A DNA stretch of 61,325 bases, counting the filler. It is 4 parts of 4 records of this genome, joined end to end, with 100 filler letters (N's around TTAATTAATTAA, not from the genome) between each part and the next. Parts side by side here need not be neighbours in the genome. Positions count along the whole stretch, not along the records: positions 1 to 20,420 come from SRR2962707_3466; 3 more parts are not named here. One strand, 5' to 3'. The notes below the pieces were generated by a model, which saw only the letters and a program-made list of their open reading frames with translations, was not told the DNA's origin and did no database searches. Shown here piece after piece: positions 3,005-20,520 of this stretch (position 1 is its first letter; every line of letters starts with the position of its first letter). The translations under genes and the position numbers were made by a program.

Positions 3005-3997
3005 TTAATAAAGCATATCCCGCTGCTTTTCAGACAATTCATCATGGTCTTTGAATTGGCTTCTATACCCTTTTGGTGTAAGCCCTGTTATTCGCTTGAA
3101 TGTTCGTCTGAATTGACTGTCATCGTTATAACCTAAGTTGTCGCTCACTACGTTGATTGTTTGTGATGTTAAAACTAAGAACTCGCAAGCACGGTTAATT
3201 TTTATTTGCTCTATTAGTTTGAGGACGGTCATATTAAGTAGAGTTTTAACCTTTCTTGCCAGTGTTCGCTCGGTCAAGTTCAAATACCCTGCAAGGTTTG
3301 ACACCGATAGCTCGGATGCGAGTGTTCTATCAACCCAATGAAATATTTTTTTTAATAATGGATCATCAAGGTAAACAAGATCCAGATGCCTAAAGGGTAA
3401 ATAGTCTAAGTGTGGTCGAGGTAGTACTAAAAACTTGAATACATCTCGGGCGACACTTTCTTCGAATTTATGACGCATAAGGTTATGGAATATTTGTAAA
3501 TAGCCATTAGCGCCAGAGGTTGTTGCGTCTCCATCAGCGTGATAGATACAAGCTAAATGATTATTCCAGTTTACTTTAGAAAAGCGTGAAGCTGCTTGCT
3601 CAGTGAGCCACCATGTAATGGTTGCCTTCGTCTTATTTAATCGCCCTGACTCTGCATGTAGCGCTACACCAGTACAATACGACCAAATCTGCGTTTCGCT
3701 TGGTAACTTCTTTAGCTCGTTAATTAATCGGCCATAGGTAATTGGCAAGCAATGAAGATCTGTACTGCCCCAAAAGCCTGGTAATAATATGGCGTCGTAT
3801 TGGTAGTCATTGATAACGTTATCAACGTTTAGTTTGATATTGTGCGCGCATGTGACTTCAGCTTTCTCTAAGCCTACCCAAGACACCTCAAATGTTGGCT
3901 GCGATAGTCGGTTATTAACGGTTTCTAATAAGTCTAAAAAGTAAAACAATCCTGCAGGCATGCAGTGCGGATATAAAAAAAGCCCAATCCTTATCAT
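3005..3997 (-). CDS. GlxA-type transcriptional regulator (DJ-1/PfpI sensor domain + AraC HTH)
   Basis: N-terminal DJ-1-like domain (AILLPG, WSYCTG with Cys, TTSGANG) and C-terminal AraC HTH (LAGYLNLTERTLARK; LGYNDDSQFRRTFKRITGLTPKGYR). Probable start is MIRIGLF at 3997. Confidence 0.9.
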   Translation of the reverse strand: MIRIGLFLYPHCMPAGLFYFLDLLETVNNRLSQPTFEVSWVGLEKAEVTCAHNIKLNVDNVINDYQYDAILLPGFWGSTDLHCLPITYGRLINELKKLPSETQIWSYCTGVALHAESGRLNKTKATITWWLTEQAASRFSKVNWNNHLACIYHADGDATTSGANGYLQIFHNLMRHKFEESVARDVFKFLVLPRPHLDYLPFRHLDLVYLDDPLLKKIFHWVDRTLASELSVSNLAGYLNLTERTLARKVKTLLNMTVLKLIEQIKINRACEFLVLTSQTINVVSDNLGYNDDSQFRRTFKRITGLTPKGYRSQFKDHDELSEKQRDMLY

Positions 3998-4062
3998 TGT
4001 CAGAAACTGTCCGTATTTGGTCCAATTATGCAATGTTACCATGTTCACGTTTTGCATACAAT
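3998..4062 (+). promoter_or_regulatory. Putative AraC-activated promoter of the transporter operon (operator 3998-4033, -10 TACAAT 4057-4062)
   Basis: TGTCAGAAACTGTCCGTATTTGGTCCAATTATGCAA matches the site at 8660-8695 at 21/36 positions. It has GTC repeats 21 bp apart and is followed by CATACAAT. Confidence 0.65.
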
Positions 4063-4114
4063 TTGGGTTGTAATGTTAATTTAATGTGATTTTAATCCGA
4101 TAGGGAGTTCTATT

Positions 4115-6505
4115 TTGAGCATTGAAACTCAAATTGCATCTCAGCCAAGCAAAATGAAACGCTTTACTGAGTTGCTGATACGTTTTCGATATCTGGTAAC
4201 GTTGATAGTCGTCGCCATATGTATAGCCACGAGCCTTGGGCAAAGCAGAGTTGGTTTTAGTAGTGACTACAGATATTACTTTGGTTCGCCTTCACCTGTA
4301 ATTGCCGCGATGGATAAGTTAGAGAGTGATTATGCACTTTCTGATAGTATTTATATTTCTATTAGTCCTAAGTCAGGCGGTACCGTATTCGACAAAGCTG
4401 TGCTTTCTGCTGTGTTGCATGCTACGCAAGAAGCTTGGAAAGTACCTTATGCGACGAGAGTTGATTCATTAAGTAACTACCAGAACACGGTGGCGAATGA
4501 TGATGATCTTACTGTAGCGCATCTATTTAAATCAGAGAGTGAATTAACCGGTTCTAATGTTGATTATATTCGTCAGGTAGCCCTTGCAGAACCAATGCTA
4601 GAAAACCGTATTGTTTCCGAGGATGGTGAGCATACCGGTGTGAATGTGGTGCTGACGCTTCCCGGTAAGTCACCCATGGAAACTTCTGAGGCCGTATCTT
4701 CAGTTCGGGAGTTAGCTAAGGTGCTTGAGAGTCAGTATCCTGTTGACGTTAGGTTGTCTGGCGTACATATGCTAAACCATGCTTTTGCTGAGATTGGCAT
4801 GCAAGATATCGTGAATATTATGCCTGTAATGTACATGGTGATGCTGGCAATATTGCTGGTGTTATTCCGTTCTGTCTTACAGGTATTGATGACAGTTGCG
4901 ATAGTGCATTTATCCACGATTACAACAATGGGTATTGTTGGTTGGCTTGGCATACCGCTTACCGCTCCATCTTCGATTGCCCCGACTATTATTCTAACGT
5001 TAGCGGTTGCAGACTCGGTTCATATCATAATGAGTTTTGTCATTGCTAAACGTCGTGGTGTAAGTGATGCGCAAGCGATAAAAGAGTCTATGTCGGTTAA
5101 TTTCATACCAATTTTATTGACCAGCTTGACGACTATTATTGGTTTTGTTGCCTTGAACTTCGCTGATGCACCTCCTTACCATGACTTAGGGAATATTACA
5201 GCTATAGGTGTGTTTATAGCGTTTGTTTTATCAGTCACCATGTTGCCCTGCTTGTTGTATATTTTACCGAATTGGATCAAACAAAAAGAGCAAGGCACGA
5301 AGTTTTCAGATAAGGTTTGGGCGAAACTATCCCATTTTATTGAGAGAAAATATAAGACCGTCATTATTATTTTCTCTGCATTAACTATTGCTTTTATGAT
5401 CCCCATTCCAAATTTGAAACTTGATGATAGGTGGGTTGAGTATTTTGCTGAGAATACTCAATTTAGAAATGATGCTGATTTTGTCCAAAAAAACGTAACA
5501 GGGTTATACGGTATTGAATTTAACATTCAGTCTCTTGGCTCTCAAGGGATCAGCGACGCTGAATATTTAAATACTCTGGATGATTTTGCTAAATACTATC
5601 GTGATTTTGATAACGTTTATAATGTGAGCGTATTAACCGATACCATGAAGCGATTGAATAAAAACCTTCATGGCGATGATCCAGACTTTTATCGCATTCC
5701 AGAAAATAAAGAGCTTGCGGCCCAATATTTATTGCTTTACGAAATGTCACTACCATATGGCCTAGATCTAACTAATCAGATCAATATGGACAAATCTAGC
5801 TCAAAGGTAGTGATTACGATGAAGGATGTTTCTACCAATGAACTAAGAGAGGCGGCAGCTAAAGGCGAAGCATGGTTAAAAAACAATGCGCCAGCCTACA
5901 TGCATGCAATTGGCTCAGGTGCTACGGTGATATTTGCTCATCAGTCTGAAGTTAATATTCAGGGGATGGTAACAGGCACGTTATTATCACTAATAATGAT
6001 TTGTGTAGTCGTATTTATTGCAATGCGCAACATAAAATACGGTCTTATCAGTGTGTTACCTAATGTATTACCAGCGATCTTTGCATTTGGCGCTTGGACT
6101 CTGCTCAGAGGACAGGCTGGAATGGAGGTTTCTATAGTCGTATCTGCCACTTTAGGCGTCATTGTCGATAACTGCGTCCACTTTATGATCAAGTATTTGC
6201 GAGGCAAAGAGCAATTTAATCTTACACCTGCCGGTGCTATTAAGTATGCCTATCAAAATGTCGGGAATGCATTGTTATTTACTTCAGTCACGTTAATTGC
6301 AGGTTATATCGTCTTAACCATGTCTTCTTTCTCGTTGAATAGCTCTCTAGGCTTGATGTCTGCGTTGACTGTCGTTGCAGCTTTATTAGTTATCAACATT
6401 TTACTTCCAGCGATAATTTTGTTTGTCGACCGTGCTGAGCAACGAGCTGCAGATGAAAAACTAGTAAACGTTCAACTTGCGTCTAAAGGAGAAATAATAT
6501 GTTAA
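4115..6505 (+). CDS. MMPL/RND-superfamily transporter
   Basis: Two repeats of TM + periplasmic loop + 5 TM, with LAVADSVH and GVIVDNCVHF motifs, PILLTSLTT and GNALLFTS. Confidence 0.9.
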   Translation: MSIETQIASQPSKMKRFTELLIRFRYLVTLIVVAICIATSLGQSRVGFSSDYRYYFGSPSPVIAAMDKLESDYALSDSIYISISPKSGGTVFDKAVLSAVLHATQEAWKVPYATRVDSLSNYQNTVANDDDLTVAHLFKSESELTGSNVDYIRQVALAEPMLENRIVSEDGEHTGVNVVLTLPGKSPMETSEAVSSVRELAKVLESQYPVDVRLSGVHMLNHAFAEIGMQDIVNIMPVMYMVMLAILLVLFRSVLQVLMTVAIVHLSTITTMGIVGWLGIPLTAPSSIAPTIILTLAVADSVHIIMSFVIAKRRGVSDAQAIKESMSVNFIPILLTSLTTIIGFVALNFADAPPYHDLGNITAIGVFIAFVLSVTMLPCLLYILPNWIKQKEQGTKFSDKVWAKLSHFIERKYKTVIIIFSALTIAFMIPIPNLKLDDRWVEYFAENTQFRNDADFVQKNVTGLYGIEFNIQSLGSQGISDAEYLNTLDDFAKYYRDFDNVYNVSVLTDTMKRLNKNLHGDDPDFYRIPENKELAAQYLLLYEMSLPYGLDLTNQINMDKSSSKVVITMKDVSTNELREAAAKGEAWLKNNAPAYMHAIGSGATVIFAHQSEVNIQGMVTGTLLSLIMICVVVFIAMRNIKYGLISVLPNVLPAIFAFGAWTLLRGQAGMEVSIVVSATLGVIVDNCVHFMIKYLRGKEQFNLTPAGAIKYAYQNVGNALLFTSVTLIAGYIVLTMSSFSLNSSLGLMSALTVVAALLVINILLPAIILFVDRAEQRAADEKLVNVQLASKGEIIC

Positions 6506-7287
6506 ATCTAAAAAAGATTTTTGTAGCAATCAACTTGCTAGCTGGCTCGACACTGGCATTTGCTGCGAGTAATGAAGATAAAGGGTTGCAACTTGCTCAG
6601 CTGGCAGATCAGGTGGATTCTGGATGGGTAGATCAAACGGTTGATATTACCATGACACTTCAAGATAGATCGGGTAATCAAAATATCCGTAAGGTAAGAA
6701 ATGAAATGCTTGAAGTTGAAGGTGATGGCGATAAAAGTTTAGTTGTATTTGATACCCCATATGATGTCAAAGGGACTGTGATGCTGTCGTTTAGCCACAA
6801 GGTTGGAGATGATGATCAGTGGCTTTACCTACCAGCTCTTAAACGGGTAAAACGAATTTCCTCTAGTAACAAGTCAGGACCTTTTATGGGAAGTGACTTT
6901 GCCTACGAAGACATGAGTTCACAAGAAGTTGAAAAATATACTTACAAGTTTATCCGAGAGGATGAATTTGAGGGCCAGGCAGTCAATGTTGTTGAGCGTA
7001 CTCCTGTATATGAAAACTCTGGGTATTCAAAGCAGCTTGTTTGGCTAGATAAGAAGCGTACGATTCCGCTTCAAATAGAATATTTTGATCGTAAAGGGAG
7101 TACTTTAAAAACCCAGTACTTTAAAGATTATCAGCTTTATAATGAGAGGTTTTGGCGCGTGGATGATTTGATGATGATAAACCATCAAAAAGGTACGCAG
7201 ACAACGATTTCATTTGATAATTATAACATTAGCCAAGGAGTACGGTTGACTAATTTTGCACAAGCAAACCTGTCTCGTATTAGGTAA
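6499..7287 (+). CDS. Outer-membrane lipoprotein-sorting (LolA-like) periplasmic protein
   Basis: Signal peptide and the DDDQWLYLPALKRVKRIS...FMGSDFAYED signature. It overlaps the MMPL stop codon. Confidence 0.85.
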   Translation: MLNLKKIFVAINLLAGSTLAFAASNEDKGLQLAQLADQVDSGWVDQTVDITMTLQDRSGNQNIRKVRNEMLEVEGDGDKSLVVFDTPYDVKGTVMLSFSHKVGDDDQWLYLPALKRVKRISSSNKSGPFMGSDFAYEDMSSQEVEKYTYKFIREDEFEGQAVNVVERTPVYENSGYSKQLVWLDKKRTIPLQIEYFDRKGSTLKTQYFKDYQLYNERFWRVDDLMMINHQKGTQTTISFDNYNISQGVRLTNFAQANLSRIR

Positions 7288-7290
7288 AAC

Positions 7291-7322
7291 TATTGGCTGA
7301 GTGAGCAATCACTCAGCCAATA
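7291..7322. other. Perfect 14-bp intra-operon hairpin
   Basis: TATTGGCTGAGTGA-GCAA-TCACTCAGCCAATA with no downstream U-tract on the + strand. Confidence 0.75.
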
Positions 7323-7337
7323 AGCAAAGGATTAGAT

Positions 7338-8498
7338 ATGAAGTTAATAGTGATGCTGTTGGCAGGTGTGTTAACCACCTTTGCTTGTATTGCAAATGTA
7401 GATATTAGAGGAACCGCTAATTTTAGTCAGCGACAATATACTGACGAGCAACCAGAGCACCATGAAAGTCAATCTCTGATTTTCATTGAGCCAGAGCTTT
7501 ATTTGCCTATTAATACTAATTGGAGCGCCCTTGCTAAACCGTATGCAAGATATGACAGCCTCGGGGCCGAACGACATCAGTTAGATTTCAGAGAACTCAA
7601 TCTGAGTTACATTAATGGTAAATTTGATGCAATACTTGGAGTTAGTGAGGTATTTTGGGGAGTAACAGAGTCGCAGCACTTAGTTGATATTGTTAATCAA
7701 ACAGATGTACTCAGTAGCATTGATGGCGAAGACAAACTCGGTCAGCCCATGCTGCAATTTAATTGGCTTCATGGCAGTGGTGCATTGCAAATGTTTGTCA
7801 TGCCTTACTTTAGAGAACGCAACTTTGCGAGCAAAGTACAGCGTCTGCAGCCTGATGTGGTCATTAATTCTGAGTCTGAATTTGAAGACAGTCAAGAAAA
7901 TAACCATACCGATTTTGCATTTAGAGCTACAAATTCTATAGGTAGCTGGGAGCTTGCTGCTTCATACTTTATTGGTACAAATCGTACTCCGAGTATGCTA
8001 CTTGAAAATGATCACTATACACAGTATTACAGTCAACTCACTCAATATGGATTGGAAGCTCAGGGGGTTTTTGGGGCGTGGCTTATTAAGAACGAAACCA
8101 TTTATCGCAAAGGACTGTACGACTGGGCAGTTGCTTATACCAGTGGTTTTGAGTACACACATGCTGGTGCTTTAGGTCAAGCAGACTTAGGTTATTTGAT
8201 TGAATATAGCTTTGATAATTTAGATGAAAATAGCCCTTCAAGTTTCCAAAATGATGTGTTTTTTGGCATTCGGGTAGCAATAAATGATGTTTCTGGATCT
8301 GAGGTATTGATTGGTGCTATTCACGATATTGACGCACACCATTGGACTATGTTCAGAGCAGAAGGTAGTACTCGAATTACTCCCTCTTTGAGATTGCGAG
8401 GAGAGATCTGGGTTGGGGATGAGACCAGAGAGAGCGATCCTTTGTTCAGCATCAAAAATGATGACTTTATTCAGTTAAGTTTTGAGTATTATTTCTAA
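7338..8498 (+). CDS. Putative outer-membrane beta-barrel protein partnered with MMPL/LolA-like genes
   Basis: Signal peptide, alternating beta-strand pattern, VFWGVTESQHLVDIVNQTD motif and C-terminal aromatic ending FEYYF. Confidence 0.75.
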   Translation: MKLIVMLLAGVLTTFACIANVDIRGTANFSQRQYTDEQPEHHESQSLIFIEPELYLPINTNWSALAKPYARYDSLGAERHQLDFRELNLSYINGKFDAILGVSEVFWGVTESQHLVDIVNQTDVLSSIDGEDKLGQPMLQFNWLHGSGALQMFVMPYFRERNFASKVQRLQPDVVINSESEFEDSQENNHTDFAFRATNSIGSWELAASYFIGTNRTPSMLLENDHYTQYYSQLTQYGLEAQGVFGAWLIKNETIYRKGLYDWAVAYTSGFEYTHAGALGQADLGYLIEYSFDNLDENSPSSFQNDVFFGIRVAINDVSGSEVLIGAIHDIDAHHWTMFRAEGSTRITPSLRLRGEIWVGDETRESDPLFSIKNDDFIQLSFEYYF

Positions 8499-8568
8499 AA
8501 TTAATTATTAAATAAAACCTATTGAGATATTAGTTATTTTAATTTTCACAATTTTCCCTTTGATTTAG

Positions 8569-8592
8569 AGCCCCTTTTTGGGGCTTTTTTTT
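8569..8592 (+). terminator. Rho-independent terminator ending the transporter operon
   Basis: AGCCCC-TTTTT-GGGGCT followed by a T run. Confidence 0.85.
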
Positions 8593-8659
8593 GCTTGTAA
8601 TTAAAATGTTTGTTTAGTTAATTTTGTGTAGCAAATTAGTTTACTTTATTTGTGTATTG

Positions 8660-8723
8660 TGTCGATAATTGGCTGGTTTTGGTCTGTAATTGCCATAAAA
8701 AAGGTTCTACGAAAACATACAAT
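8660..8723 (+). promoter_or_regulatory. Putative AraC-activated promoter of the biosynthetic operon (operator 8660-8695, -10 TACAAT 8718-8723)
   Basis: TGTCGATAATTGGCTGGTTTTGGTCTGTAATTGCCA has the same architecture as 3998-4062, with the -10 box 58 versus 59 nt from the motif start. Confidence 0.65.
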
Positions 8724-8754
8724 AATTCTATGATTTATTAATGATGGAATCAAA

Positions 8755-9843
8755 GTGGAGTATTTGAATAAACTGGTAAGTTCAATAAATGCACCGGCCT
8801 CAATATCGAATCTGCAGCTTAACAATCGGGTCGTGATGGCTCCTATGACTCAGGAAAGCTCTGTAAAGCATATACCAGGAAAGACGCAGATCGAACACTA
8901 CGGACAAAGAGCAAAACACGGCGTTGGTCTCATTATTACTGAAGGGACTGTTATTCCGCACTCTTCCGCTAATGGGCACTTCAATGTACCGCTTATGTAT
9001 TCTGCAGCTGCACTTTCGGGGTGGAGCAAAGTCGTCAATGAAGTACACCGTTTCAATAGCAAAATATTTGCCCAGCTTTGGCATGTTGGTGGAGTAAGAG
9101 ACGCTGCAATGCCGCCTGAAGTTGGCGTACCTGCAGTTAGTCCGAGCGGATTGTCAGCTCCAAATATACCCAATGGAAGAAAGCTGACCATCAAGGAAAT
9201 TGATGAGGTAATTGTGGCATATGCAAATGCCGCTAAGAATGCACAGCTTTGCGGCTTTGATGGTATTGAGATACATGCCGCACATGGATATTTGATCGAT
9301 CAATTCTTGTGGCAAGCAACTAACTTGCGAAGTGATCGATACGGCGGTATTACAGAAAATCGCTATCGCTTTGCTACAGAAGTGGTAACTGCTATCCGTG
9401 ATGCGGTCGGTCCCGATTTCACAATATGTTTTCGTTGGTCTCAATGGAAAATTCAAAACTTTTCAGCATGTTTGTTTCAATCGCCGGAAGAATTAGCTCC
9501 TTTCTTACAGACTGTCTCTGAGGCTGGTGTCGATATATTCCATACTAGCACTAGACGGTTTTGGGAACCTGGGTTTAAAGGTAGTGAAAAGACACTTGCA
9601 GGCTGGACAAAAGCCATTACACAAAAGCCTTGTATAGCCGTTGGGGGAGTGGGGTTAGGCAATGACTTCTTGCTTGGTGGGCCATCAAGTGGCAGTCAAC
9701 ATGTTTATGAAAGCTTGATTCGGGGGTTAGAAGGTAATGAATTTGACTTGATTGCAGTTGGTCGATCACTACTCGCTGACTCGGCGTGGTTTTCAAAATT
9801 AAATCAAAAAAGTACGCAAAATAATAACCATGTTTTGGCTTAG
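8755..9843 (+). CDS. NADH:flavin oxidoreductase (old yellow enzyme family)
   Basis: NRVVMAPMT, QLWHVG, GFDGIEIHAAHGYLIDQF, NLRSDRYGG, DLIAVGRSLL. Confidence 0.92.
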   Translation: MEYLNKLVSSINAPASISNLQLNNRVVMAPMTQESSVKHIPGKTQIEHYGQRAKHGVGLIITEGTVIPHSSANGHFNVPLMYSAAALSGWSKVVNEVHRFNSKIFAQLWHVGGVRDAAMPPEVGVPAVSPSGLSAPNIPNGRKLTIKEIDEVIVAYANAAKNAQLCGFDGIEIHAAHGYLIDQFLWQATNLRSDRYGGITENRYRFATEVVTAIRDAVGPDFTICFRWSQWKIQNFSACLFQSPEELAPFLQTVSEAGVDIFHTSTRRFWEPGFKGSEKTLAGWTKAITQKPCIAVGGVGLGNDFLLGGPSSGSQHVYESLIRGLEGNEFDLIAVGRSLLADSAWFSKLNQKSTQNNNHVLA

Positions 9844-9903
9844 CGATATCTTTCGTTAAAAAGCCAAGCATTAGGTGAAATAAGTTTATAAGGACTGAGA
9901 TTT

Positions 9904-10890
9904 ATGTCAAACCAGAATGTAACGGAGTTATCCCGTCAGATACTGCAACTCGTGTTCCGTGAGCGAAAGTTGGTAGAGTCCGAGGTTTCGCTAGCAAATG
10001 AAGTTCATGAATATCTAAGTGAAGATGAACTATACCCTCATCTAGATATGATAGAGCGGATGGTAATAAAAGATGAACCTATAACTATGGTATTACCAGC
10101 TTATCCGGGAAAATCACCAAACCGCAATAAAACATTAAGTAAATATCCAGATTTAGCTGAAAAGCATTCTATCGATATGCTTCATATACTTTGCGACAGG
10201 ATTGAAAAAATTTACCCGCCAGGTGTAAAGGTATTAATTTGTTCTGATGGCTATGTGTTTTCGGATCTTGTACGGATCCCTGATACAGATGTGCATAGCT
10301 ATACTGAGGCAATCAAAGAGTATTACACAAGGAATTACCCAACACAGTTCGATTTCTTCGATATTAAAGACGCCTTCCCAGAAATAAAATGCTTAGACGC
10401 GATGCGAGAAGAATTAATGATCCGCTATGGTGAGTCGTTGGTCAGTTTAACGAATCGTTCACAAAGTGAGAAAGAAACTCGTTCCATGTACCAAGGGATT
10501 ACTAAGTTTTTATTTGAGGATTTTCTCGGTTTAGTTGAGTTCACCCAAGTCAGTAAAACTCAGGTACAAAAAGCAGCTAAGTCTACGGCCTTAAGAGTAA
10601 TACTTCGTAGTAATGCTTGGAGCAAGCTACTGGAAGTGAGATCCCCTGAAGCCTTGCGACTATCAATCCATCCTCAATTTAGAGTTTCTCAAAAGATAGG
10701 CATAAAACTCGCCAATTCAGCAGATTGCTGGCGTACACCATGGCACTCAGTTGCGGTGCTGAGAAAGAATCAAATTCATCTTGCTCATAGAAATATGGTG
10801 AGCGAGAGCAGTCATCGATTGATGTTTAGTCAAGGCGCGCCAAGTCATTACGTGATGTCTTGGGAAAATGGGGCTGTAGCACATGTATAA
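9904..10890 (+). CDS. Isocyanide synthase (PvcA/IsnA/Dit1 family), stand-alone
   Basis: LPAYPGKSPN, ICSDGYVFSDLV, RSNAWS, LRLSIHPQ and TPWHSVAV are the characteristic ICS motifs. Confidence 0.9.
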   Translation: MSNQNVTELSRQILQLVFRERKLVESEVSLANEVHEYLSEDELYPHLDMIERMVIKDEPITMVLPAYPGKSPNRNKTLSKYPDLAEKHSIDMLHILCDRIEKIYPPGVKVLICSDGYVFSDLVRIPDTDVHSYTEAIKEYYTRNYPTQFDFFDIKDAFPEIKCLDAMREELMIRYGESLVSLTNRSQSEKETRSMYQGITKFLFEDFLGLVEFTQVSKTQVQKAAKSTALRVILRSNAWSKLLEVRSPEALRLSIHPQFRVSQKIGIKLANSADCWRTPWHSVAVLRKNQIHLAHRNMVSESSHRLMFSQGAPSHYVMSWENGAVAHV

Positions 10891-11530
10891 ACTCGCTATT
10901 TTCGATCTTGATGGCACCTTGGTCGATACTCTAAACAGCATCACCACGAGCGTAAATATTTTGAGAGAAAGAGTCGGCCTTAATGCCGTGGATAAAGTAT
11001 CTGTTTTACCGTTTATTGGTAAGGGGAGTGCAAATATGTTGCAAGCACTGTGTAATACTTCCTCTGGATCGTTACATAAGACTGTTGCCTCTTACAATAA
11101 AATATATGAAGACAACCTATTTACTCAGCTCAACGTTTATCAAGGTATAGGGCAACTACTTGAGAACTTGAGTACGCAAGGTGTAAAGACAGCAGTAGTC
11201 ACCAATAAATACCATCGTCAAGCACTAGATGTATTGGAGTACTGTTTTAAGCACTTTGCATTTGATGCAATTCAAGGTGTGACTGATGAAACACTCAAAA
11301 AACCTAATCCAGTTCAAACTGTAAAGCTTATCGAAAAACTCGGCGTTCAGGCTCATGAGGCGGTTTTTATTGGCGATTCAGAGATTGATTACCTTACCGC
11401 ACAGGCCTCAAGCATCGATTTTAAGTTTGTTACTTGGGGGTACGGCATAGCTGGACAGTTTGATCTTAAGACTGATGAGATTGTGAGTTCGGCACCAGAT
11501 TTACAAAAAGCAATATTAGGAACTTTCTAA
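10883..11530 (+). CDS. HAD-family phosphatase (phosphoglycolate-phosphatase-like)
   Basis: IFDLDGTLVDT, VVTNK, KKPNP and FIGDSEID. It overlaps the ICS stop codon. Confidence 0.9.
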   Translation: MYKLAIFDLDGTLVDTLNSITTSVNILRERVGLNAVDKVSVLPFIGKGSANMLQALCNTSSGSLHKTVASYNKIYEDNLFTQLNVYQGIGQLLENLSTQGVKTAVVTNKYHRQALDVLEYCFKHFAFDAIQGVTDETLKKPNPVQTVKLIEKLGVQAHEAVFIGDSEIDYLTAQASSIDFKFVTWGYGIAGQFDLKTDEIVSSAPDLQKAILGTF

Positions 11531-11539
11531 GAGAACATC

Positions 11540-13744
11540 ATGGAAATTTATAACTACATAAAGATAAGCGATAGGGTTGCATTAGCAGGTCAGCCATCAG
11601 CACAAGAGTTTGAAGAGCTAGTAGCGAATGGTGTGGATTGCGTCATTAACCTTGCACCATATGATGAGCGTTATTCTATAGACAATGAAGCTGAACTGAT
11701 TGAAAGACTTGCTGCAACGTATATATACTACCCAATAGACTTTGCGAATCCAACACTTAAAGATTATGCAAAAGTAGAAGCGCTGCTGTTGGATAATCAA
11801 GATAAAAATGTACTACTGCATTGCGCAGCTAACTACCGAGCTTCGTTGCTATTTGGGCATTTTGCGATTCGTCACTTGGGCTGGAGTCGCGCAGAAAAAA
11901 AGGCCTTGATAAACCAGATTTGGTCATTGGACAACTTTCCTACTTGGAAGGTTTTGGACAAAAAGCTTGATGCTGGATTAAGCGACGATATTAATACGCA
12001 GGTAGCTGATGTTATCGAAATGTACTTGGTGCAATCCGGCGATGGCTTTGCAAAGGCGGGGCGAACCCATCTTGCAAATGCGATTAATGTATTTACTAGT
12101 CAAGATCAGGCTGTGCAACTTATACTACCTGGGTTTCCGTGCAAATCACCAAACATAGAAGCGAAATCATTTTCTAAATTGCCAGATTACGGTGAGGTAT
12201 TAGCCGTAGAGCGTATGCAGTCTATGTGTGATGATATCCAAGATATTTATTCAAAAGGCGCGAAAATAACCATTATTAGTGATGGTGCAACTTTCTCTGA
12301 TCTTGTTGGTGTTGATGATTCCATCATGCAGGAATATAACGCAGCATTAAGAACGTTAACCATAACTCATGACATACAATGGGCAGATTTAACCGATTTA
12401 TGTCAGTTGGAAAAAGCAAATTCAGAATATGACTCTGCTTATCTAAGAAAGCAGCTACTAAAGAATTTAACAATCAATCCCAGAGCACTGCAAAATTATA
12501 CCGATAAGGTTAAAAAAGATGCGCAGCTTCGTATCGAACATGATGACTTATGCAGCTATCTATATAACGATGTTTGTCTTGTACATTTATCGCAAAACGA
12601 TAGAGACGATTACTTGGCAAGTATATGCGATAAAGCCTATGAAATGATGTTTCGAGGTAAAGCTCTGACGCATAGTATTAATGAACGATTCTCAAATCAT
12701 ATCCGCTTGTCAACGCACCGATATGACAATACAGGGCCAAAGTTCTCTATCGCTTTATCCGCGAATAACCAACAAGTACTAGCGCCTTGGCACGCTGTTC
12801 CTGTGATGCGCTTGAATGGCAATGTTGAGTTGATGCCGCATGCAACAGCTAAAGAACTCAATGTCGCTAATGTGACTTTCGCAAATAGCAACTGGATGTA
12901 TATCGAAGTTTCGGAAGCGCGTTTGACAACATTGCAATTTGAAGTTCTGAAGTCACCTCGTTTCGGGCTTAAAATAACCCTACCTTCAGATGTGACTTAT
13001 CAAGAGCTGCAGCCTCAATTCCTAACCATGTTAAGCCAAGAGTTCGGTTTTATTTTACTTCCAAATGCTGACTTTGAAGAAGAACAGGAGTTAGTTGAGT
13101 TAACTGCTCCTTTTGGTGAGATTTATCAATGGCAGTTTGGGCCAGTTCATGTGGTGAAGCCTGAAGAAAAGCCTAATGGATTTGTTCACTCGATTGAAAA
13201 AACACCATTACATTGGGATTTGAGCATGTTACCGCTCGATCATGAGCGTGTTATTGATAATGAGCGTTTCTACGCATCAACCTTTTTACTTTACTGTAAA
13301 ACCGCTGCGCAGCCTGGCGAAGGGCAAACCACGATTGTTGATAGTCGAAATGTGTTGAAGCTTGCTGGTCGGAAAAAGGTTAGGGAGTGGCAAGAAACAG
13401 AAGTTATCTACTCCACAAAAATGACTTACTTTGGCGGTGTGCCGCGAGTTTATCCTTTGGTGTTTGAACACCCCAAAAATGGTGAGCTACTGCTGCGTTA
13501 TCAAGAGGGAAGTAACTCTGAGCTCCAAACTTTTGAATTGAGCTCAGAGCAACTTGAAAGCAATACATTTAATGCGGTGATCTCTGAAGTCAATGAGTTG
13601 TGTTATGACGAGCGCTGCATGATTGCCCATGACTGGCAGGATGGCGATTTAATCATAGTAGACAATCATTACACCCTACACGGAAGGTTGTCTATGACGG
13701 AGCTTTCTATGAGCCGTGAAGTGTGGCGAGTACAGGTAATTTAA
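11540..13744 (+). CDS. Three-domain fusion: DUF442/PTP-fold Cys domain + isocyanide synthase + TauD-like Fe(II)/2OG dioxygenase
   Basis: aa ~1-145: AGQP, VINL, LLHCAANYR. aa ~150-460: LPGFPCKSPN, IISDGATFSDLVGV, IRLSTH, APWHAVPV. aa ~465-734: PLHWD (HxD), GEGQTTIVD, HDWQDGDLIIVDNHYTLHGR. Confidence 0.88.
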   Translation: MEIYNYIKISDRVALAGQPSAQEFEELVANGVDCVINLAPYDERYSIDNEAELIERLAATYIYYPIDFANPTLKDYAKVEALLLDNQDKNVLLHCAANYRASLLFGHFAIRHLGWSRAEKKALINQIWSLDNFPTWKVLDKKLDAGLSDDINTQVADVIEMYLVQSGDGFAKAGRTHLANAINVFTSQDQAVQLILPGFPCKSPNIEAKSFSKLPDYGEVLAVERMQSMCDDIQDIYSKGAKITIISDGATFSDLVGVDDSIMQEYNAALRTLTITHDIQWADLTDLCQLEKANSEYDSAYLRKQLLKNLTINPRALQNYTDKVKKDAQLRIEHDDLCSYLYNDVCLVHLSQNDRDDYLASICDKAYEMMFRGKALTHSINERFSNHIRLSTHRYDNTGPKFSIALSANNQQVLAPWHAVPVMRLNGNVELMPHATAKELNVANVTFANSNWMYIEVSEARLTTLQFEVLKSPRFGLKITLPSDVTYQELQPQFLTMLSQEFGFILLPNADFEEEQELVELTAPFGEIYQWQFGPVHVVKPEEKPNGFVHSIEKTPLHWDLSMLPLDHERVIDNERFYASTFLLYCKTAAQPGEGQTTIVDSRNVLKLAGRKKVREWQETEVIYSTKMTYFGGVPRVYPLVFEHPKNGELLLRYQEGSNSELQTFELSSEQLESNTFNAVISEVNELCYDERCMIAHDWQDGDLIIVDNHYTLHGRLSMTELSMSREVWRVQVI

Positions 13745-13756
13745 GGAATATATAAA

Positions 13757-14944
13757 ATGAATAACACGATGACATTTGAACAAATAGATAACAATATTGA
13801 TGGAATTATTAATCAAATAGCTGCGGCGAGTGCAGATATTGAAGCACTGAGAAGGTTACCAGAAAGTACAGTTACTCTGCTTAAAGATACTGGTGTCTTC
13901 AGTATGGCGATGCCAAAATCAATGGGAGGGGCAGAACTTGACCCTATCAGTCAAATTAAACTGATTGAGAAAATATCTCGTGCTAATAGTGCAGCAGGGT
14001 GGTGCACTATGATCGGTTCAGACAGTGGCTATTTTGCAGCAATGTTACCTCAAGAACTTGCAATTAAAACCTATCCAAACCCACATGTCATTAGTGGTGC
14101 TGCATTATCGCAAACGGGTAAAGCGCGCAAAGTTGCTGGTGGTTTTATGGTAAGTGGTCGTTGGCCTTTTGTAAGTGGTTGTAATAATGCACAGTGGTTG
14201 ATTGCGGGTTGTAAAGTGTATGACGGTGAAGACATGGTGCTACTTGATGGAGAAGTTCCGCAAACACTGCAATGTTTTTTAAATATGTCAGATCTTGAAA
14301 TCCTTGATACTTGGCATGTGATGGGGTTACGGGGTAGTGGAAGTAATGATGTCGCGCTGCAACAAGAGGTATTTGTTGCAGAGGAAATGACGTTTAGCTT
14401 CCAGCAACCAAGAAGTTTTCAGGATGGAGCGCTTTACCAATTTCCAATGGCTTTTATGTTTAATTTCTCTGCTGTACCTCTTGGGTTGGCGCAATCTGCA
14501 CTAGACTTTTTTCTTTCGCAGGCAAATAAACCGACAAGGCAAGTTCATCAAGCTGGGCAATTTTTAAAAGGTCGTACATTAAAAGATGAATCTTTTGTAC
14601 AAGGTACGGTTGGCGAAGCTGCAACGAAACTCAGAATGTTACGAGCATTTTTGTATCATGAAGTTGAGCAAATTTGGACTTTATTAAAACAAGATGAGGT
14701 TCCTTCTCCAGTGCAACAAGTGGCTTTTTTGGCAGCTACCACGGAAGTGTTTAGCGGCTGCCAAGAGATTGTAGAAACATTAGTTAAGTGTCGTGGTGGT
14801 TCAGCGGTTTATCAGGGAAACCCGTTAGAGCAAGCGCTTCGAGATATTGTCACTATGAATCAACATGCTATGACCTCACCGCGTAACCAACATCAATTGG
14901 GGAGAGCGCTGCTAGGTGTTCCACCTGAGCAGATTTTACTTTAA
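13757..14944 (+). CDS. Acyl-CoA-dehydrogenase-fold flavin-dependent monooxygenase (HsaA/C2-HpaH-like)
   Basis: RRLPE, MPKSMGG, SAAGW, VSGRWPFVSGCNNAQW, DTWHVMGLRGSGSND, GGSAVY...LEQALRD. Confidence 0.85.
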   Translation: MNNTMTFEQIDNNIDGIINQIAAASADIEALRRLPESTVTLLKDTGVFSMAMPKSMGGAELDPISQIKLIEKISRANSAAGWCTMIGSDSGYFAAMLPQELAIKTYPNPHVISGAALSQTGKARKVAGGFMVSGRWPFVSGCNNAQWLIAGCKVYDGEDMVLLDGEVPQTLQCFLNMSDLEILDTWHVMGLRGSGSNDVALQQEVFVAEEMTFSFQQPRSFQDGALYQFPMAFMFNFSAVPLGLAQSALDFFLSQANKPTRQVHQAGQFLKGRTLKDESFVQGTVGEAATKLRMLRAFLYHEVEQIWTLLKQDEVPSPVQQVAFLAATTEVFSGCQEIVETLVKCRGGSAVYQGNPLEQALRDIVTMNQHAMTSPRNQHQLGRALLGVPPEQILL

Positions 14945-15009
14945 AAGGTGAACCTGCGTCGGTGATGCAGGGCATCTCCTATACTTGTTAAAAAGCAAGG
15001 AGCTACGAA

Positions 15010-16458
15010 ATGAATTCGTTAGAAAACTACTTTTTTCCTTATCGCGAGGGAATAATAGGCACAGAATACAAGGTATCTAGAAATAATCAGAGCAAGTCTT
15101 TAATTTATGCTGATTGGACGGCTAGCGGGCGTTTATATGAGCCAATAGAATGTTATATAAATAAAGAACTAGGACCTTATATTGCTAACACCCACACAGA
15201 GTCTAATGAGACCTCTCGAGTGATGACTAAGGCATATCATGAGGCGCAGGATATCATCAAAGCGCATGTCAATGCGGATGATGATGACATCTTATTATTT
15301 ACTGGAAACGGTTCAACAGCAGCTGTAAATAAGTTACAGCGTTTAATGGCATTGAAAGGAGCCTGTGTCGATGCAGAGCCTCTTCCAGTGGTTTTTGTTA
15401 CGCACATGGAGCATTACTCAAATCACGCTTCATGGCTGGCATGCGACGTCGAAGTTGTTGTTATTCCTGCTGCAAAAGGTAAGCCTGCGTCTGATTTAGC
15501 CGCCTTTAAACGCTTGTTATCTACGTACGAGGGGCGCCAGATTATTGGTGCATTTAGCGCGGCCTCTAATGCTTCTGGTGTGTGTACTAAGCTAAGTGGT
15601 TTAGCGGCTTTAGTGCACCAATACGGCGGTATCTGTATTGCTGATTTCGCAGCAGCAGCTCCATATGTTGATATCAACATGCATCCTGATCGACATGAAT
15701 GTCGCTTGGACGCGGTCTTTTTCTCCCCACACAAGTTTTTAGGTGGTCCCGGTGCTTCAGGTGTGTTGATATTTAATAAAAGTTTATATCGGCTAAATAC
15801 CCCAGACCAACCTGGAGGTGGTACGGTAGAGTCAGTGGATAAGATGGGCAATCCCACTTATATCGCAGATATTACGCAAAGAGAAGATGGTGGAACACCT
15901 GGAACATTACAAGCTGTTCGTGCAGCTTTGGCTGTGGTGCTAAAGGAAAAAATGGGAGTGGAAAACATTCTTGCAAGAGAAAAAGAGCTCAGATTTTTAC
16001 TTGCACAGCAGTTACGAGCCATTTCAGGCCTCCATATTGTTGAAGATCAGCCGGTTGAAAAGCTGGGTATTATTTCCTTTTTTGTTAATAACCTTGACCA
16101 CAACGACATTGCTGAGGAATTAGATAACCAATTCGCGATTCAAGTTCGAGGTGGGATCTCTTGTGCTGGCTATTATGCCCATCATATTTTTAAGAAGGAA
16201 TTTGAAAAGCTAGGGTGTGGTGTAAAAAGTGCTACGCCAGCAGGTTGGGTAAGAATTTCGTTACATCCGACAATGACGACAGCAGAAATAAATGAAATCG
16301 GCACTGCAGTCAAGGCTGTTATTGAGCAGCTAAAATTGAGTAAAAAAACCAGTAGTAAATTAATTACAGATAAGCAGATGGATCTCCGCGAGGTTGAGCT
16401 ATTTTCGTCTTCTACAAGCTGGAATAAACAAAACGAAGAAGTAGCGATAGGTGTTTAA
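15010..16458 (+). CDS. Class V PLP enzyme, cysteine desulfurase/selenocysteine lyase-like
   Basis: YADWTASGR, EHYSN, DFAAAAPY, PLP Lys in FSPHKFLGGPG, EDGGTPG, Cys loop RGGISCAG and GWVRIS. Confidence 0.85.
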   Translation: MNSLENYFFPYREGIIGTEYKVSRNNQSKSLIYADWTASGRLYEPIECYINKELGPYIANTHTESNETSRVMTKAYHEAQDIIKAHVNADDDDILLFTGNGSTAAVNKLQRLMALKGACVDAEPLPVVFVTHMEHYSNHASWLACDVEVVVIPAAKGKPASDLAAFKRLLSTYEGRQIIGAFSAASNASGVCTKLSGLAALVHQYGGICIADFAAAAPYVDINMHPDRHECRLDAVFFSPHKFLGGPGASGVLIFNKSLYRLNTPDQPGGGTVESVDKMGNPTYIADITQREDGGTPGTLQAVRAALAVVLKEKMGVENILAREKELRFLLAQQLRAISGLHIVEDQPVEKLGIISFFVNNLDHNDIAEELDNQFAIQVRGGISCAGYYAHHIFKKEFEKLGCGVKSATPAGWVRISLHPTMTTAEINEIGTAVKAVIEQLKLSKKTSSKLITDKQMDLREVELFSSSTSWNKQNEEVAIGV

Positions 16459-17101
16459 TCTTGGTTTGTTCGTTATTGTGGGTTATTAAATGAGTTGAAA
16501 TATATCTTAAAGGCTTGGTTTTTGTCGATAACGATCAAGCTCCATCAAAAGAGACGTAATCACTGATACATATTTTCGGGAGTAACCTACCAGCTATTTT
16601 TGGAGTGGGCCAAAGTGGCGAGGTGTTTAGCGCTTATTTTGACAAAGAAGCAACAAGTAGATGCTCAAGCAGTAACTTGCTTTAATTGAACCTGCGGGCA
16701 GCAGTGCACAAACGCAAGATAAAATCGGTGACAGTGGCGCTAGGTAGTAACATCAATACATACGTGCAAAGTAATCGGTGTTTGTGTTACTTCCACTGAT
16801 TCTTATTACCAGCGAAGCTGGCAAACCAGAGGTGCCATAATAAGTAAAAGATGCATAAGTAACTGTAACCCGCTTCGGCAGTATTTGCGATTAAGCGTGC
16901 AAAATAGCGTAACATTATATACTTTATCAGATCAGTATTGCATTTGAGAATGTGGTTTCTAATAAGCTCCAAGTGTAGTAACTGGGAAGTCAGGTATCTA
17001 AACTTGGCGGAAAGTAAGTCACTGAAATTAAATAGCAATGCATCAGGCTAACCGTTAAACTAAAAGTCATCCTTAGAATCTACTATCTAAAGCTTAGGAA
17101 T

Positions 17102-17560
17102 TTACTTAGCCTTAGCATCAGTTCCAAGTAAGCTCTCAATGTAGGCGAGTTCTTCGCTAAAAATACCATTAAAAAATGCACTTTGCTCAACGGTTACTGC
17201 GTCATTAGGTTGGGCTTTGTAGTCTTGCTGGCATCTGACAAGTTCGCTTGATATCCATTGGCATACGTCGGTTGCTGTATTTATTGCTGTTTTTAAAAAC
17301 GATGACCATTTAATCTTTTGTAAATTAAAGCGATAGAGTGTTACAGCAATAAGGCTATATGCATGTTGCTCAGATGAGGGCGTGTTATCACTCTTTATTG
17401 TGTAACTATTTAGCAGCTTACTGCTGATAAGCGCGTGTTGCAGTGCGACTTGTTGTGGTTCACTTAGAAAAGTAGTGGTCATAACGTATTGGTGGCCTCT
17501 ATCCGCTGGATTAAACGTGGCATTTAAACTGGAAGCTAGGCAAGGCGTTGGATGACTCAT
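17102..17560 (-). CDS. Hypothetical protein (true start possibly ATG 17482)
   Basis: 152-aa ORF with no recognised motif. AGAGG lies upstream of the internal ATG. Confidence 0.45.
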   Translation of the reverse strand: MSHPTPCLASSLNATFNPADRGHQYVMTTTFLSEPQQVALQHALISSKLLNSYTIKSDNTPSSEQHAYSLIAVTLYRFNLQKIKWSSFLKTAINTATDVCQWISSELVRCQQDYKAQPNDAVTVEQSAFFNGIFSEELAYIESLLGTDAKAK

Positions 17561-17714
17561 GCAATAGCGAAGAAATGCAGCAACAGTGATAGCAAATCAG
17601 GACTGACTCTTTACTGAATTAGTCAAATACAATTGTAATCGAAGAAGTGGTTTAGGTTCTAATTTGTGGTTTACTGCTGTGCTGGCCTGTAGGTAAAAAC
17701 AACTAATAAAAGGT

Positions 17715-17748
17715 CAGCCAACAACGATTACTTAATGGTTGTTGGCTG
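17715..17748 (-). terminator. Probable terminator downstream of the DUF885 gene
   Basis: CAGCCAACAAC / GTTGTTGGCTG 11-bp inverted repeat followed by a T-rich run on the minus strand. Confidence 0.6.
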
Positions 17749-17790
17749 GTACTTATTACATAAATATGCATCAATCAAATGCAATGAGCG

Positions 17791-19533: not shown

Positions 19534-19736
19534 GTTAGAGCTTTTATAAAGCAGTCGCGTAGGGTATTAGTTTTGCGTACTTTATAGCTAAAATTAGGGT
19601 ATCAAATTAACGTTGTAAATGCGCTGGCTTTTTCAGCTAGAGCCAATTGAAAACTAATTACTTATTGAGATCGACATCGGTGATAAAGCCGTACAACATA
19701 GGCTAGCGGTTAAACTATTCTACAAAGGGGCTTTCA

Positions 19737-20420
19737 TTGGATTCACTCACACAAGTTGTACTTGGTAGCGCAGTTGCTTATTCAGTATTAGGCAATAAGC
19801 TTGGCCGAAAATCGCTATTGGTTGGTGCGGCGTTTGGCACGTTACCTGACTTAGATGTGCTGATTAATTTTGGTGGCAATGTTGAGAACTTTGTTCAGCA
19901 CCGTAGCTTTAGCCATTCTATTCTTGTGCAACTATTAATTAGCCCTTTGTTTGCATGGCTTTTACTTAAAATGAATTGGGCTAAAGGGGTGTCGTTAACG
20001 CGCTGGTCTATTGCTATATTTTTGATTTTGAGTACCCACGCCTTACTTGATAGTTTTACTGTTTATGGCACACAGTTACTGTGGCCGCTTTCGACATACC
20101 CGTTCGGTATTTCGAGTATATTTATAATTGACCCCGCTTATACTCTGCCACTTATAGTCTCGTGTATTGGGCTTTGTTTTGTGCGTACTAAGAATCAAGC
20201 TCAACGCATAAATACCTGCGCGTTAATTGTCAGTTCGCTTTATTTAACGTGGGGGTTAACGGCAAAGTGGCATATCAACGAGAAGATTTATCAGGCGCTA
20301 AATAACCAGAACATTACATTTAAACACTTTGAAAGTATGCCTACCCCTTTTAACACCATGCTTTGGCGAGCGATAGCCGTGACTGAGCAAGGGCATTATG
20401 AGATTTATGCCTCTGTGTTT
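19737..20420 (+). CDS. Metal-dependent membrane hydrolase (YdjM/LexA-binding family), 3' truncated
   Basis: MDSLTQ, GTLPDLD, HRSFSHS, THALLDSFTVYGTQLLWP, IFIIDP. The ORF runs into the N spacer. Confidence 0.85.
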
Positions 20421-20520
20421 NNNNNNNNNNNNNNNNNNNNNNNNNNNNNNNNNNNNNNNNNNNNTTAATTAATTAANNNNNNNNNNNNNNNNNNNNNNNN
20501 NNNNNNNNNNNNNNNNNNNN
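20421..20520. other. Artificial contig-joining spacer
   Basis: N44-TTAATTAATTAA-N44 (stop codons in all frames). Base composition changes abruptly across it. Confidence 0.97.

Follow-up and report, generated by a model that had tools for sequence, protein, structure and literature searches.

Among gene clusters built on isocyanide synthases, the sinapigladioside (spg) cluster of Burkholderia gladioli and B. stagnalis is the only one that we found reported to yield an isothiocyanate, and no sulfurtransferase gene had been recognized in it or in other isocyanide clusters (PMC8252389, 2021). The bacterial route from isocyanide to isothiocyanate was an open question until the report of RhdE, a classical rhodanese of Burkholderia which, as described in excerpts of PMC12112954 and PMC11773565 that cite Mlotek, Dose and Hertweck (ChemBioChem 2024, e202300732), puts sulfur on isonitriles to form isothiocyanates, with thiosulfate as the source. 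A rhodanese activity is also on record for a different type of domain: in Cupriavidus, sulfide:quinone oxidoreductase carries a DUF442 domain that works as a thiosulfate:cyanide sulfurtransferase, with Cys94 as the active residue (excerpt of PMC9163753). Here we describe a gene cluster at positions 3005-16458 of a 61,325-nucleotide stretch of DNA (the window, always meaning the whole stretch), which encodes two isocyanide synthases (ICS1 and ICS2), a DUF442-like domain with the motif HCAANYR and a SufS-like enzyme dependent on pyridoxal phosphate (PLP). We interpret it as a two-operon biosynthetic gene cluster of Pseudoalteromonas, with a divergent regulator, the product of which would be an aromatic metabolite derived from a vinyl isocyanide. 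It is very probable that the cluster makes a ring-hydroxylated vinyl isocyanide scaffold; an isothiocyanate as the end product is a real possibility, somewhat short of an expectation. An earlier note on this DNA had traced sinapigladioside to the transfer of sulfur onto an isonitrile, in agreement with PMC8252389 and with the excerpts of PMC12112954 and PMC11773565.

Both synthases exceed the cut-off of the DIT1_PvcA family (PF05141, 26.4 bits), ICS1 with 261.8 bits and ICS2 with 208.8 bits, each over about 270 of the 273 model positions. ICS1 is a stand-alone protein and ICS2 forms the middle part (approximately residues 180-441 in Pfam) of a 734-residue three-domain protein, which begins with the DUF442-like domain and ends with a TauD-family Fe(II)/2-oxoglutarate (Fe/2OG) dioxygenase domain (residues 480-731). 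The motifs LPGFPCKSPN, RLSTH and PWH, common to ICS1 and SpgA, are all retained in ICS2. The Fe/2OG domain scores 95.2 bits against TauD (PF02668; cut-off 27), and its residues H558, D560 and H714, which we infer to be the H-x-D...H iron-binding triad, are invariant in all 12 fused proteins compared. In an AlphaFold model of the 734-residue protein, built from 12 input sequences and with a mean pLDDT of 72, the best PDB matches of the predicted ICS2 part are PIsnA (9dhm) and PvcA (3e59), at TM scores of 0.78-0.81 (target-normalised), and the predicted Fe/2OG fold matches those of PvcB and P.IsnB. The two isocyanide synthases and the dioxygenase domain, originally recognized from the letters of the sequence, are borne out by family scores, and ICS2 and the dioxygenase domain by predicted fold as well. 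Against the NCBIfam PvcA model the isocyanide synthase reaches 222 bits (cut-off 600), and its substrate would be either tyrosine or tryptophan.

The core of the cluster can be aligned with that of spg. A large replicon of Burkholderia stagnalis YJ-2, retrieved by a protein search of the plasmid collection, carries an spg orthologue (locus L110), annotated in the order isocyanide synthase, MFS transporter, "protein tyrosine phosphatase family protein", ICS-family fusion, glycosyltransferase-like protein, hypothetical protein, methyltransferase and sugar-related genes. This is the spg gene order given in PMC8252389, and in an excerpt of PMC12195442 the similarity of the YJ-2 cluster to that of sinapigladioside is given as 100%. 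In both spg and the window a stand-alone synthase, a DUF442-like protein and an ICS-Fe/2OG fusion follow one another in the same order, and an AraC regulator is common to the two (PMC8252389). ICS1 is 46% identical to the SpgA orthologue of L110, the N-terminal domain of the fused protein and SpgC share 44% identity over a stretch of 84 residues that ends in HCAANF, and ICS2 and the Fe/2OG domain are 27% and 46% identical to the N- and C-terminal parts of SpgD, respectively. A metagenome locus (L038, with L040) also has an spg-like layout, with a separate HCAANYR gene whose product is 39% identical to the window domain. From the layout of L110 and L038 and from these identities, it follows that the "tyrosine phosphatase" SpgC is a homologue of the fused domain of the window. 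The window cluster is a relative of the spg cluster core. The spgC orthologue of L110 (11394-11863) carries an annotation of two overlapping frames, with the shift directly past HCAANF, and represents either a sequencing error or an inactivated gene.

The N-terminal domain of the fused protein (residues 1-157) matches PDB entry 3gxg, "Putative phosphatase (DUF442)", at E 3e-16, and also, at E 2e-7, the N-terminal part of Blh, a sulfurtransferase/dioxygenase model of NCBIfam; a family profile matches 3gxg at E 1e-36. The predicted fold agrees with 3gxg and 3gxh (TM 0.80-0.82, target-normalised; rmsd 2.3-2.4), and 3gxg, the closest structure, carries no assigned function. The putative active residue of the window domain, Cys95, is encoded by TGC at 11822-11824, exactly where the earlier note had placed it, and lies in the motif HCAANYR. 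The segment H94-C95-A-A-N-Y-R100 is invariant in 12 of 12 three-domain proteins that are 42-92% identical. Residues C95 and R100 coincide with the Cys and Arg of CRTGxRS in six canonical PF04273 domains from related genomes, so that both loops are of the C-X4-R type, although they are worded differently, HCAANYR[AV][ST] in the family of the window and [FY]CRTGxRS in canonical DUF442. The loop of true tyrosine phosphatases is one residue longer in PDB alignments, and their P-loop pattern H-C-X5-R-[ST] is not matched by the H-C-X4-R of the window. Judged by these profile and motif comparisons, the HCAANYR family occupies a place between DUF442 and true phosphatases.

The SufS-like PLP enzyme is the second candidate sulfur protein. 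Its gene begins 65 nt past the monooxygenase gene, on the same strand. The motif RGGISCAG is present, with Cys385 encoded at 16162-16164, and residues 27-386 align with SufS structures such that Lys242 coincides with their PLP lysine and Cys385 with their catalytic cysteine, in keeping with the intact loop claimed earlier. All 22 family members compared share K242, H135 and C385, the loop consensus being RGGCSCAG. The designation "cysteine-desulfurase-like" holds for these conserved Lys, His and Cys residues of SufS and less well for the overall scores: the best NCBIfam model is the SufS subfamily, at 134.4 bits against a cut-off of 475.1, the protein remains under every NCBIfam cut-off, and there is a weak match to EgtE (E 8e-5). 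The enzyme belongs to a very large, unnamed family of proteins of about 490 residues, with at least 8000 candidates at E <= 1e-10 and members about 50% identical in Bacillota, Bacteroidota and others. Within the genus the family is rare (4 of 140 Pseudoalteromonas genomes at E <= 1e-60). Two of these four genomes have the gene inside this cluster and the other two have no adjoining cluster genes; the neighbours of the family genes in G443 and G427 (two-component regulators, ADP-ribosylglycohydrolase and others) are uninformative on function. Because of this rarity, and because the other class-V enzymes of Pseudoalteromonas sp. S2755 (genome G001) are just 26-29% identical to the PLP enzyme, we conclude that the gene arrived with the cluster rather than being a housekeeping copy.

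The following pathway can be proposed. By family membership, and on good grounds, ICS1 and/or ICS2 would convert L-Tyr or L-Trp and ribulose-5-phosphate to an alpha-isocyano acid, which the fused Fe/2OG domain would decarboxylate and desaturate to a vinyl isocyanide; the flavin monooxygenase would hydroxylate the ring, like PvcC, the RND, LolA-like and outer-membrane proteins would export the product, and the AraC/DJ-1 regulator would govern expression. The SufS-like enzyme would form a persulfide from cysteine, and its sulfane sulfur would land on the isocyanide carbon to give the isothiocyanate, the transfer proceeding via Cys95 of the fused DUF442-like domain or straight from the desulfurase. 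The old yellow enzyme (OYE) may reduce an alkene or a quinone, and the HAD phosphatase may act on a sugar phosphate. The addition of sulfur is plausible because the desulfurase-like gene has no other obvious job in the operon. That Cys95 is the relay or the catalyst of sulfur transfer is nevertheless doubtful, and we would give a little less credence still to the broader proposal that the HCAANYR domain, which carries the label "tyrosine phosphatase" in all annotations, that of SpgC included, is a new class of isonitrile sulfurtransferase inside clusters, loaded in Pseudoalteromonas by a dedicated SufS-like desulfurase. Of the self-contained isothiocyanate pathway put forward in the earlier note, the isocyanide cluster and its two candidate sulfur proteins have stood, and the relay from desulfurase to Cys95 to R-NCS keeps the conditional standing that it had there.

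The whole block, from the AraC gene to the PLP gene, was found in Pseudoalteromonas sp. S2755 (locus L001, the sole locus returned by one genome-collection scan) at 79-95% protein identity, and in one further genome among 140 of the genus (G444, locus L127) at 81-96%. The DNA match to G001 runs to about 16760, some 300 nt past the stop codon of the PLP gene. Since the AraC-to-PLP block is kept in both genomes and the DNA match ends just past the PLP gene, the block has been inherited as one unit, this gene included. A search with the fused protein yielded 55 relatives, 11 with all three domains, 7 with an N-terminal HAD domain instead, and the rest ICS-Fe/2OG fusions or fragments. The three-domain relatives come from Pseudoalteromonas, Candidatus Thiodiazotropha, Pseudomonas solani and metagenomes. 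In Thalassomonas and relatives (L022-L025 in genomes G068, G110, G015 and G148, and P0014-P0029) HAD is fused N-terminally to ICS-Fe/2OG, in the same position as the DUF442-like domain of the window.

In a same-family sample of 401 genomes, 11 match the fused protein, only G001 across all 734 residues; eight of the other ten loci hold at most ICS1, HAD, ICS2 and Fe/2OG, and none of these eight contains a DUF442-like domain, monooxygenase, OYE, PLP enzyme or export genes. A class-wide sample, also of 401 genomes, contains four with an isocyanide synthase including G001, and the other three are simple isnA-isnB pairs; in these three gammaproteobacterial loci of the random sample none of the extra genes of the window cluster was found. 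Relatives of the monooxygenase (42-62% identical) occur on contigs of 17876, 15532, 35328, 20240 and 31649 bases, which are the sizes for five of ten fused-protein homologues (the non-Pseudoalteromonas fused proteins P0005-P0012, P0022 of Pseudomonas solani, and P0027). Co-location is read here from equal longest-contig sizes, an indirect measure that is valid only if the longest contigs of both proteins are one contig. HAD is present in most relatives with visible surroundings. From the locus contents and the shared contig sizes, the conserved module therefore joins the flavin monooxygenase to ICS1 and the fused protein. It is this monooxygenase that accompanies the fused protein as its conserved partner, whereas the PLP enzyme, perhaps together with the OYE, is a Pseudoalteromonas-specific addition.

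The HCAANYR domain is linked to isocyanide synthases in three architectures: fused, separate upstream of ICS-Fe/2OG, and separate beside ICS and IsnB. A metagenome scan, biased in its counts because it was seeded with the HCAANYR motif, listed 80 loci, none of them encoding the 10 non-Pseudoalteromonas fused homologues; six of the 80 hold both an HCAANYR domain and a synthase. In L047, L048, L067 and L073 a stand-alone HCAANYR gene lies beside a synthase and IsnB, together with RND and LolA-like export genes homologous to those of the window, and L047, L048 and L067 also contain a halogenase-like flavoenzyme and a DUF1330 protein. Three of these loci (L047 9980-16650, L067 6086-11183 and L073 9884-13861) represent a distinct, uncharacterised type of isocyanide cluster from metagenomes. 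The flavoenzyme of L047 and L067 is tryptophan-halogenase-like, and L047 adds a TauE/SafE-family permease and a HAD phosphatase; L073 holds the synthase, IsnB, HCAANYR, HAD and export genes, these being the ones checked. On a 5.6-kb metagenome contig with no synthase in view (L075, 301-2085), a monooxygenase 34% identical to that of the window adjoins a stand-alone HCAANYR gene, which hints that the pairing of monooxygenase and HCAANYR is independent of the synthase. As to whether synthase, DUF442-like domain and desulfurase are linked in a conserved manner, a check that the earlier note had called for, the linkage of the first two recurs in these three architectures and that to the desulfurase does not.

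A number of observations weigh against sulfur transfer by the fused domain, and they are best considered together with the main alternative, which they favour, namely that the product is a sulfur-free hydroxylated vinyl isocyanide as in pvc and isn. The fused domain would then be a phosphatase or have another non-sulfur role, acting with the HAD enzyme on phosphorylated substrates or by-products of the synthase that depends on ribulose-5-phosphate, and the PLP enzyme would have a task that does not concern the isocyanide carbon, or be a co-transferred passenger. We consider this alternative possible though unlikely. The window domain gives no match to Pfam PF04273 at E <= 10, and its identity to canonical DUF442 is just 16-20%. 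Among 27 members of the HCAANYR family, PF22741 is matched by 24, PF04273 by 21 (at E <= 0.01, best 6e-8), PF22785 by 19 and DSPc by 10, and with the family profile phosphatases of the PDB are found at E 1e-5 to 1e-7. By these profile scores the domain is at least as close to the dual-specificity phosphatase families as to DUF442, within the dual-specificity/tyrosine phosphatase clan. It retains the Arg of the loop, the His before Cys95 and the Asp of a P-[IV]-D-F motif, the counterpart in alignment of "pDF" in an archaeal tyrosine phosphatase; we take this Asp to be the general acid of a phosphatase. The DUF442-like call for the Cys-loop domain survives in its fold and its C-X4-R loop, but it does not reach PF04273, and its sulfur role is a putative one.

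The genomic distribution points the same way. The HCAANYR domain was found in none of 11 other isocyanide loci in unbiased genome samples, and 59 of the 80 listed metagenome loci hold it alone, with no conserved neighbour; clustering of the neighbours of stand-alone HCAANYR genes in the listed loci gave no conserved partner besides isocyanide genes. Beyond the three Pseudoalteromonas copies, no match to the PLP enzyme at E <= 1e-4 to 1e-6 was obtained in any of 32 isocyanide loci (8 from genomes, 20 from metagenomes among the matches listed, the spg locus and the 3 random gammaproteobacterial loci), and none of its 120 listed relatives lies on a contig of the size of any of the 10 fused-protein homologues. 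The earlier note had named a usual lack of the desulfurase in homologous clusters as grounds for abandoning its proposal, and such a lack is what these loci show. Searches of the ten cluster proteins with Pfam and NCBIfam gave no rhodanese, SufE, SufU or TusA match, and no small carrier-like reading frame is present downstream, at 16300-17150; within the cluster, Cys95 of the DUF442-like domain would be the sole candidate acceptor of a persulfide. In 7 of the 55 relatives a fused HAD domain takes the N-terminal place of the DUF442-like domain, which suggests that phosphate-ester chemistry is coupled to these synthases. Most weight falls on the precedent from Burkholderia: deletion of spgC had "no influence" on sinapigladioside (PMC8252389), the sulfur step is credited there to RhdE, and RhdE is described as a recruited "ubiquitous detoxification enzyme" (excerpt of PMC12112954).

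Three features count against the sulfur-free alternative. The loop of the fused domain is one residue short of that of true phosphatases and equal to that of sulfurtransferase DUF442. A separate HAD phosphatase is encoded directly upstream, so that a second phosphatase would need a reason of its own. The PLP gene lies close behind that of the monooxygenase, in the same orientation, and none of the three Pseudoalteromonas copies of the cluster lacks it, despite the rarity of its family in the genus.

Sulfur might also enter the product in another manner, if the PLP enzyme acted as a C-S lyase or supplied the sulfur of a ring thiol, of a thioformamide, or of an adduct between cysteine and the catechol or quinone formed by the monooxygenase. 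Class-V PLP enzymes include C-S lyases, EgtE is weakly matched, the enzyme scores far under the SufS equivalog cut-offs, and quinone chemistry could be prepared by a phenol-hydroxylating monooxygenase together with the OYE. The catalytic cysteine of desulfurases, however, is invariant in this PLP family, whereas a C-S lyase is not known to need it, and no precedent for such a route was found in the literature searched; we regard this explanation as improbable. Finally, we think it very improbable that the two sulfur proteins serve self-protection, converting leaked isocyanide or cyanide within the cell to a sulfur adduct of lower reactivity, with an isocyanide still as the product exported: the detoxification origin that the RhdE authors see for isonitrile sulfuration (quoted in the excerpt of PMC12112954) and the silent spgC deletion, which fits a protective role dispensable for titre (PMC8252389), speak for it, but a domain fused in frame to a synthase-dioxygenase, and with its motif unchanged in all 12 proteins, has the look of an assembly-line component.

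The ten genes of 3005-16458 form two same-strand operons plus one divergent regulator gene (Table 1). Their families were called by Pfam and NCBIfam profile scans of the cluster proteins.

Table 1. Genes, domains and other features of the isocyanide-synthase cluster, with positions along the window
Feature	Positions	Strand	Evidence
AraC-family regulator with N-terminal DJ-1/PfpI-like domain	3005-4057	-	Pfam HTH_18 E 1e-18, DJ-1_PfpI E 2e-6
RND transporter, MMPL/HAE3 type	4115-6505	+	Pfam MMPL E 3e-34; NCBIfam HAE3 E 2e-53, under cut-off
LolA-like periplasmic carrier protein	6499-7287	+	Pfam LolA_like E 2e-62
386-residue protein, probably an outer-membrane beta-barrel	7338-8498	+	Hydrophobic N-terminus, C-terminal ...FEYYF
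Terminator-like hairpin closing the export operon	8567-8587	+	8 pairs (5 G-C), then T run
Old-yellow-enzyme-type FMN oxidoreductase (OYE)	8755-9843	+	Pfam Oxidored_FMN E 2e-62
ICS1, stand-alone isocyanide synthase	9904-10890	+	Pfam DIT1_PvcA E 1e-77
HAD-family phosphatase	10883-11530	+	Pfam HAD_2 E 2e-34
734-residue three-domain protein	11540-13744	+	Pfam DIT1_PvcA E 1e-61 plus TauD E 8e-27
DUF442-like N-terminal domain, residues 1-157 of the 734-residue protein	11540-12010	+	PDB 3gxg E 3e-16
ICS2, second isocyanide-synthase domain (borders approximate)	12011-12940	+	DIT1_PvcA E 1e-61, model positions 1-269/273
Fe(II)/2-oxoglutarate dioxygenase domain, PvcB/IsnB type	12941-13744	+	Pfam TauD E 8e-27
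Flavin-dependent monooxygenase, acyl-CoA-dehydrogenase fold (HsaA / HpaH-C2 / IacA-like)	13757-14944	+	Pfam Acyl-CoA_dh_2 E 4e-21
SufS-like class-V PLP enzyme	15010-16458	+	Pfam Aminotran_5 E 3e-45

All ten genes and domains listed in the earlier note were placed correctly and have strong family matches, with the exception of the 386-residue protein of the export trio, which has no Pfam or NCBIfam match in these scans and is read as a probable outer-membrane barrel because its C-terminus shows the usual aromatic signature. The export trio and the regulator do lie beside the biosynthetic genes as described, and 8755-16458 does have the layout of one operon: its genes share a strand, the intergenic gaps range from -8 to +65 nt, and the hairpin at 8567-8587 sets the export operon apart from it. 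The flavin monooxygenase matches NCBIfam HsaA (E 3e-45) and the oxygenase component of p-hydroxyphenylacetate 3-hydroxylase (E 4e-33), both under the equivalog cut-offs. The regulator gene is divergent from the export operon, and its product is 94% identical in L001 and 95% in L127. In its DJ-1/PfpI-like domain a cysteine is kept in the motif ...SYCTG... The DJ-1 family includes isocyanide hydratase, in which a cysteine serves as nucleophile, and one might speculate that the domain of the regulator senses the product of its own cluster.

An independent 13.3-kb contig from an unrelated seawater metagenome run covers 12551-17639 without a break. A contig of one seawater run, elsewhere collinear with 12551-20400, has the DUF885 gene (17791-19533) swapped for 90 other letters (17640-19723). 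To the right of the cluster, strains differ from one another. On the left flank there are an IS200-like transposase fragment with a DnaA-C-like helix-turn-helix (5-829) and a PhoD-like phosphatase (961-2565). The cluster lies wholly on the first contig, the G+C content of which (about 40% for 1-20420) is Pseudoalteromonas-like, versus 51-64% for 20521-61325. A genomic island beginning at about 20.5 kb, where the G+C content jumps from 40% to 55-62%, was considered on account of this jump and rejected, since the jump is an artificial joint between contigs: 20421-20520 is a contig spacer composed of two runs of 44 N around TTAATTAATTAA. The reading frame at 19737-20468 runs into this spacer. Past the joint, the sequence searched (to 26400) gave no DNA match in G001, and the high-G+C part may come from another organism, i.e., a mixed bin. 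This part encodes, at 35093-36739 on the minus strand, a 548-residue protein with DinB_2 and FGE-sulfatase domains, the pair typical of EgtB/OvoA-type sulfoxide synthases; this protein is unrelated to the cluster.

The literature search returned nothing on this cluster, in line with the earlier note, which did not recognise it as a characterised one, and, apart from the spg paper, nothing linking isocyanide synthases with DUF442, cysteine desulfurase, tyrosine phosphatase or Pseudoalteromonas. Rhodanese-type sulfur transfer onto isonitriles has already been published; if the cluster does add sulfur, the novelty would consist of a cluster-built version with a different fold and a desulfurase as the source. 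Should the HCAANYR domain be an isonitrile sulfurtransferase loaded by the SufS-like enzyme, this would be the first self-contained bacterial isothiocyanate pathway, with no need of a housekeeping rhodanese, and isocyanide clusters bearing HCAANYR, such as the fused forms of Candidatus Thiodiazotropha and Pseudomonas solani and the loci L047, L067 and L073, would be predicted isothiocyanate producers. An operon that holds both an HCAANYR domain and a desulfurase-like enzyme offers a clean test of whether sulfur transfer is built into isocyanide clusters. SpgC, called a tyrosine phosphatase (PMC8252389), belongs to a family that has the short loop of a proven sulfurtransferase and is repeatedly attached to isocyanide synthases. 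Should the sulfur proposal be wrong, a conserved core of marine Gammaproteobacteria would still have been defined, consisting of two synthases, HAD, the HCAANYR domain, Fe/2OG and the flavin monooxygenase.

Like pvcABCD (paerucumarin) and isnAB (rhabduscin, vinyl isonitriles), the window combines an isocyanide synthase with a PvcB/IsnB-type Fe/2OG enzyme. PvcC is a flavin-dependent aromatic hydroxylase, to which the flavin monooxygenase of the window may be compared as an analogue. What sets the window apart from the pvc and isn systems is its pair of synthase domains, its fusion architecture and its HAD phosphatase, as well as the DUF442-like domain, the SufS-like enzyme, the OYE and RND/LolA export. 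Canonical DUF442 (BLH_phosphatase, PF04273) resembles the window domain in its dual-specificity phosphatase fold and short C-X4-R loop, and also in its placement, since it is fused N-terminally to the enzyme that it serves (sulfide:quinone oxidoreductase or the persulfide dioxygenase Blh). In the group II cysteine desulfurases (SufS and CsdA) the PLP lysine, the stacking histidine and the cysteine of R-x-G-x-x-C-A align with those of the PLP enzyme, which is about 25-28% identical to SufS in two alignments and about 70 residues longer and which, unlike these desulfurases, has no SufE- or SufU-type acceptor in its cluster.

The comparison with spg shows differences around the common core. In spg, SpgC has a gene to itself, whereas the domain is fused in the window, and the two spg synthases are separated by an MFS transporter. 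The tailoring genes of spg are glycosyltransferases, methyltransferases and sugar genes, domains that are absent from the ten window proteins; conversely, L110 gave no tblastn match to the HAD, monooxygenase, OYE, SufS-like and RND/LolA proteins of the window. Conserved motifs that ICS2 of the window keeps are reported as lost from the synthase domain of SpgD (PMC8252389). Sulfur transfer in spg is credited to RhdE, encoded outside the cluster (excerpts of PMC12112954 and PMC11773565), whereas the candidate of the window is encoded within it. The chemistry envisaged is the same in both cases, sulfane sulfur plus R-NC giving R-NCS, but RhdE is a rhodanese, and the candidate of the window is a domain of another fold, fused inside the cluster and supplied, as proposed here, by a desulfurase-like sulfur source.

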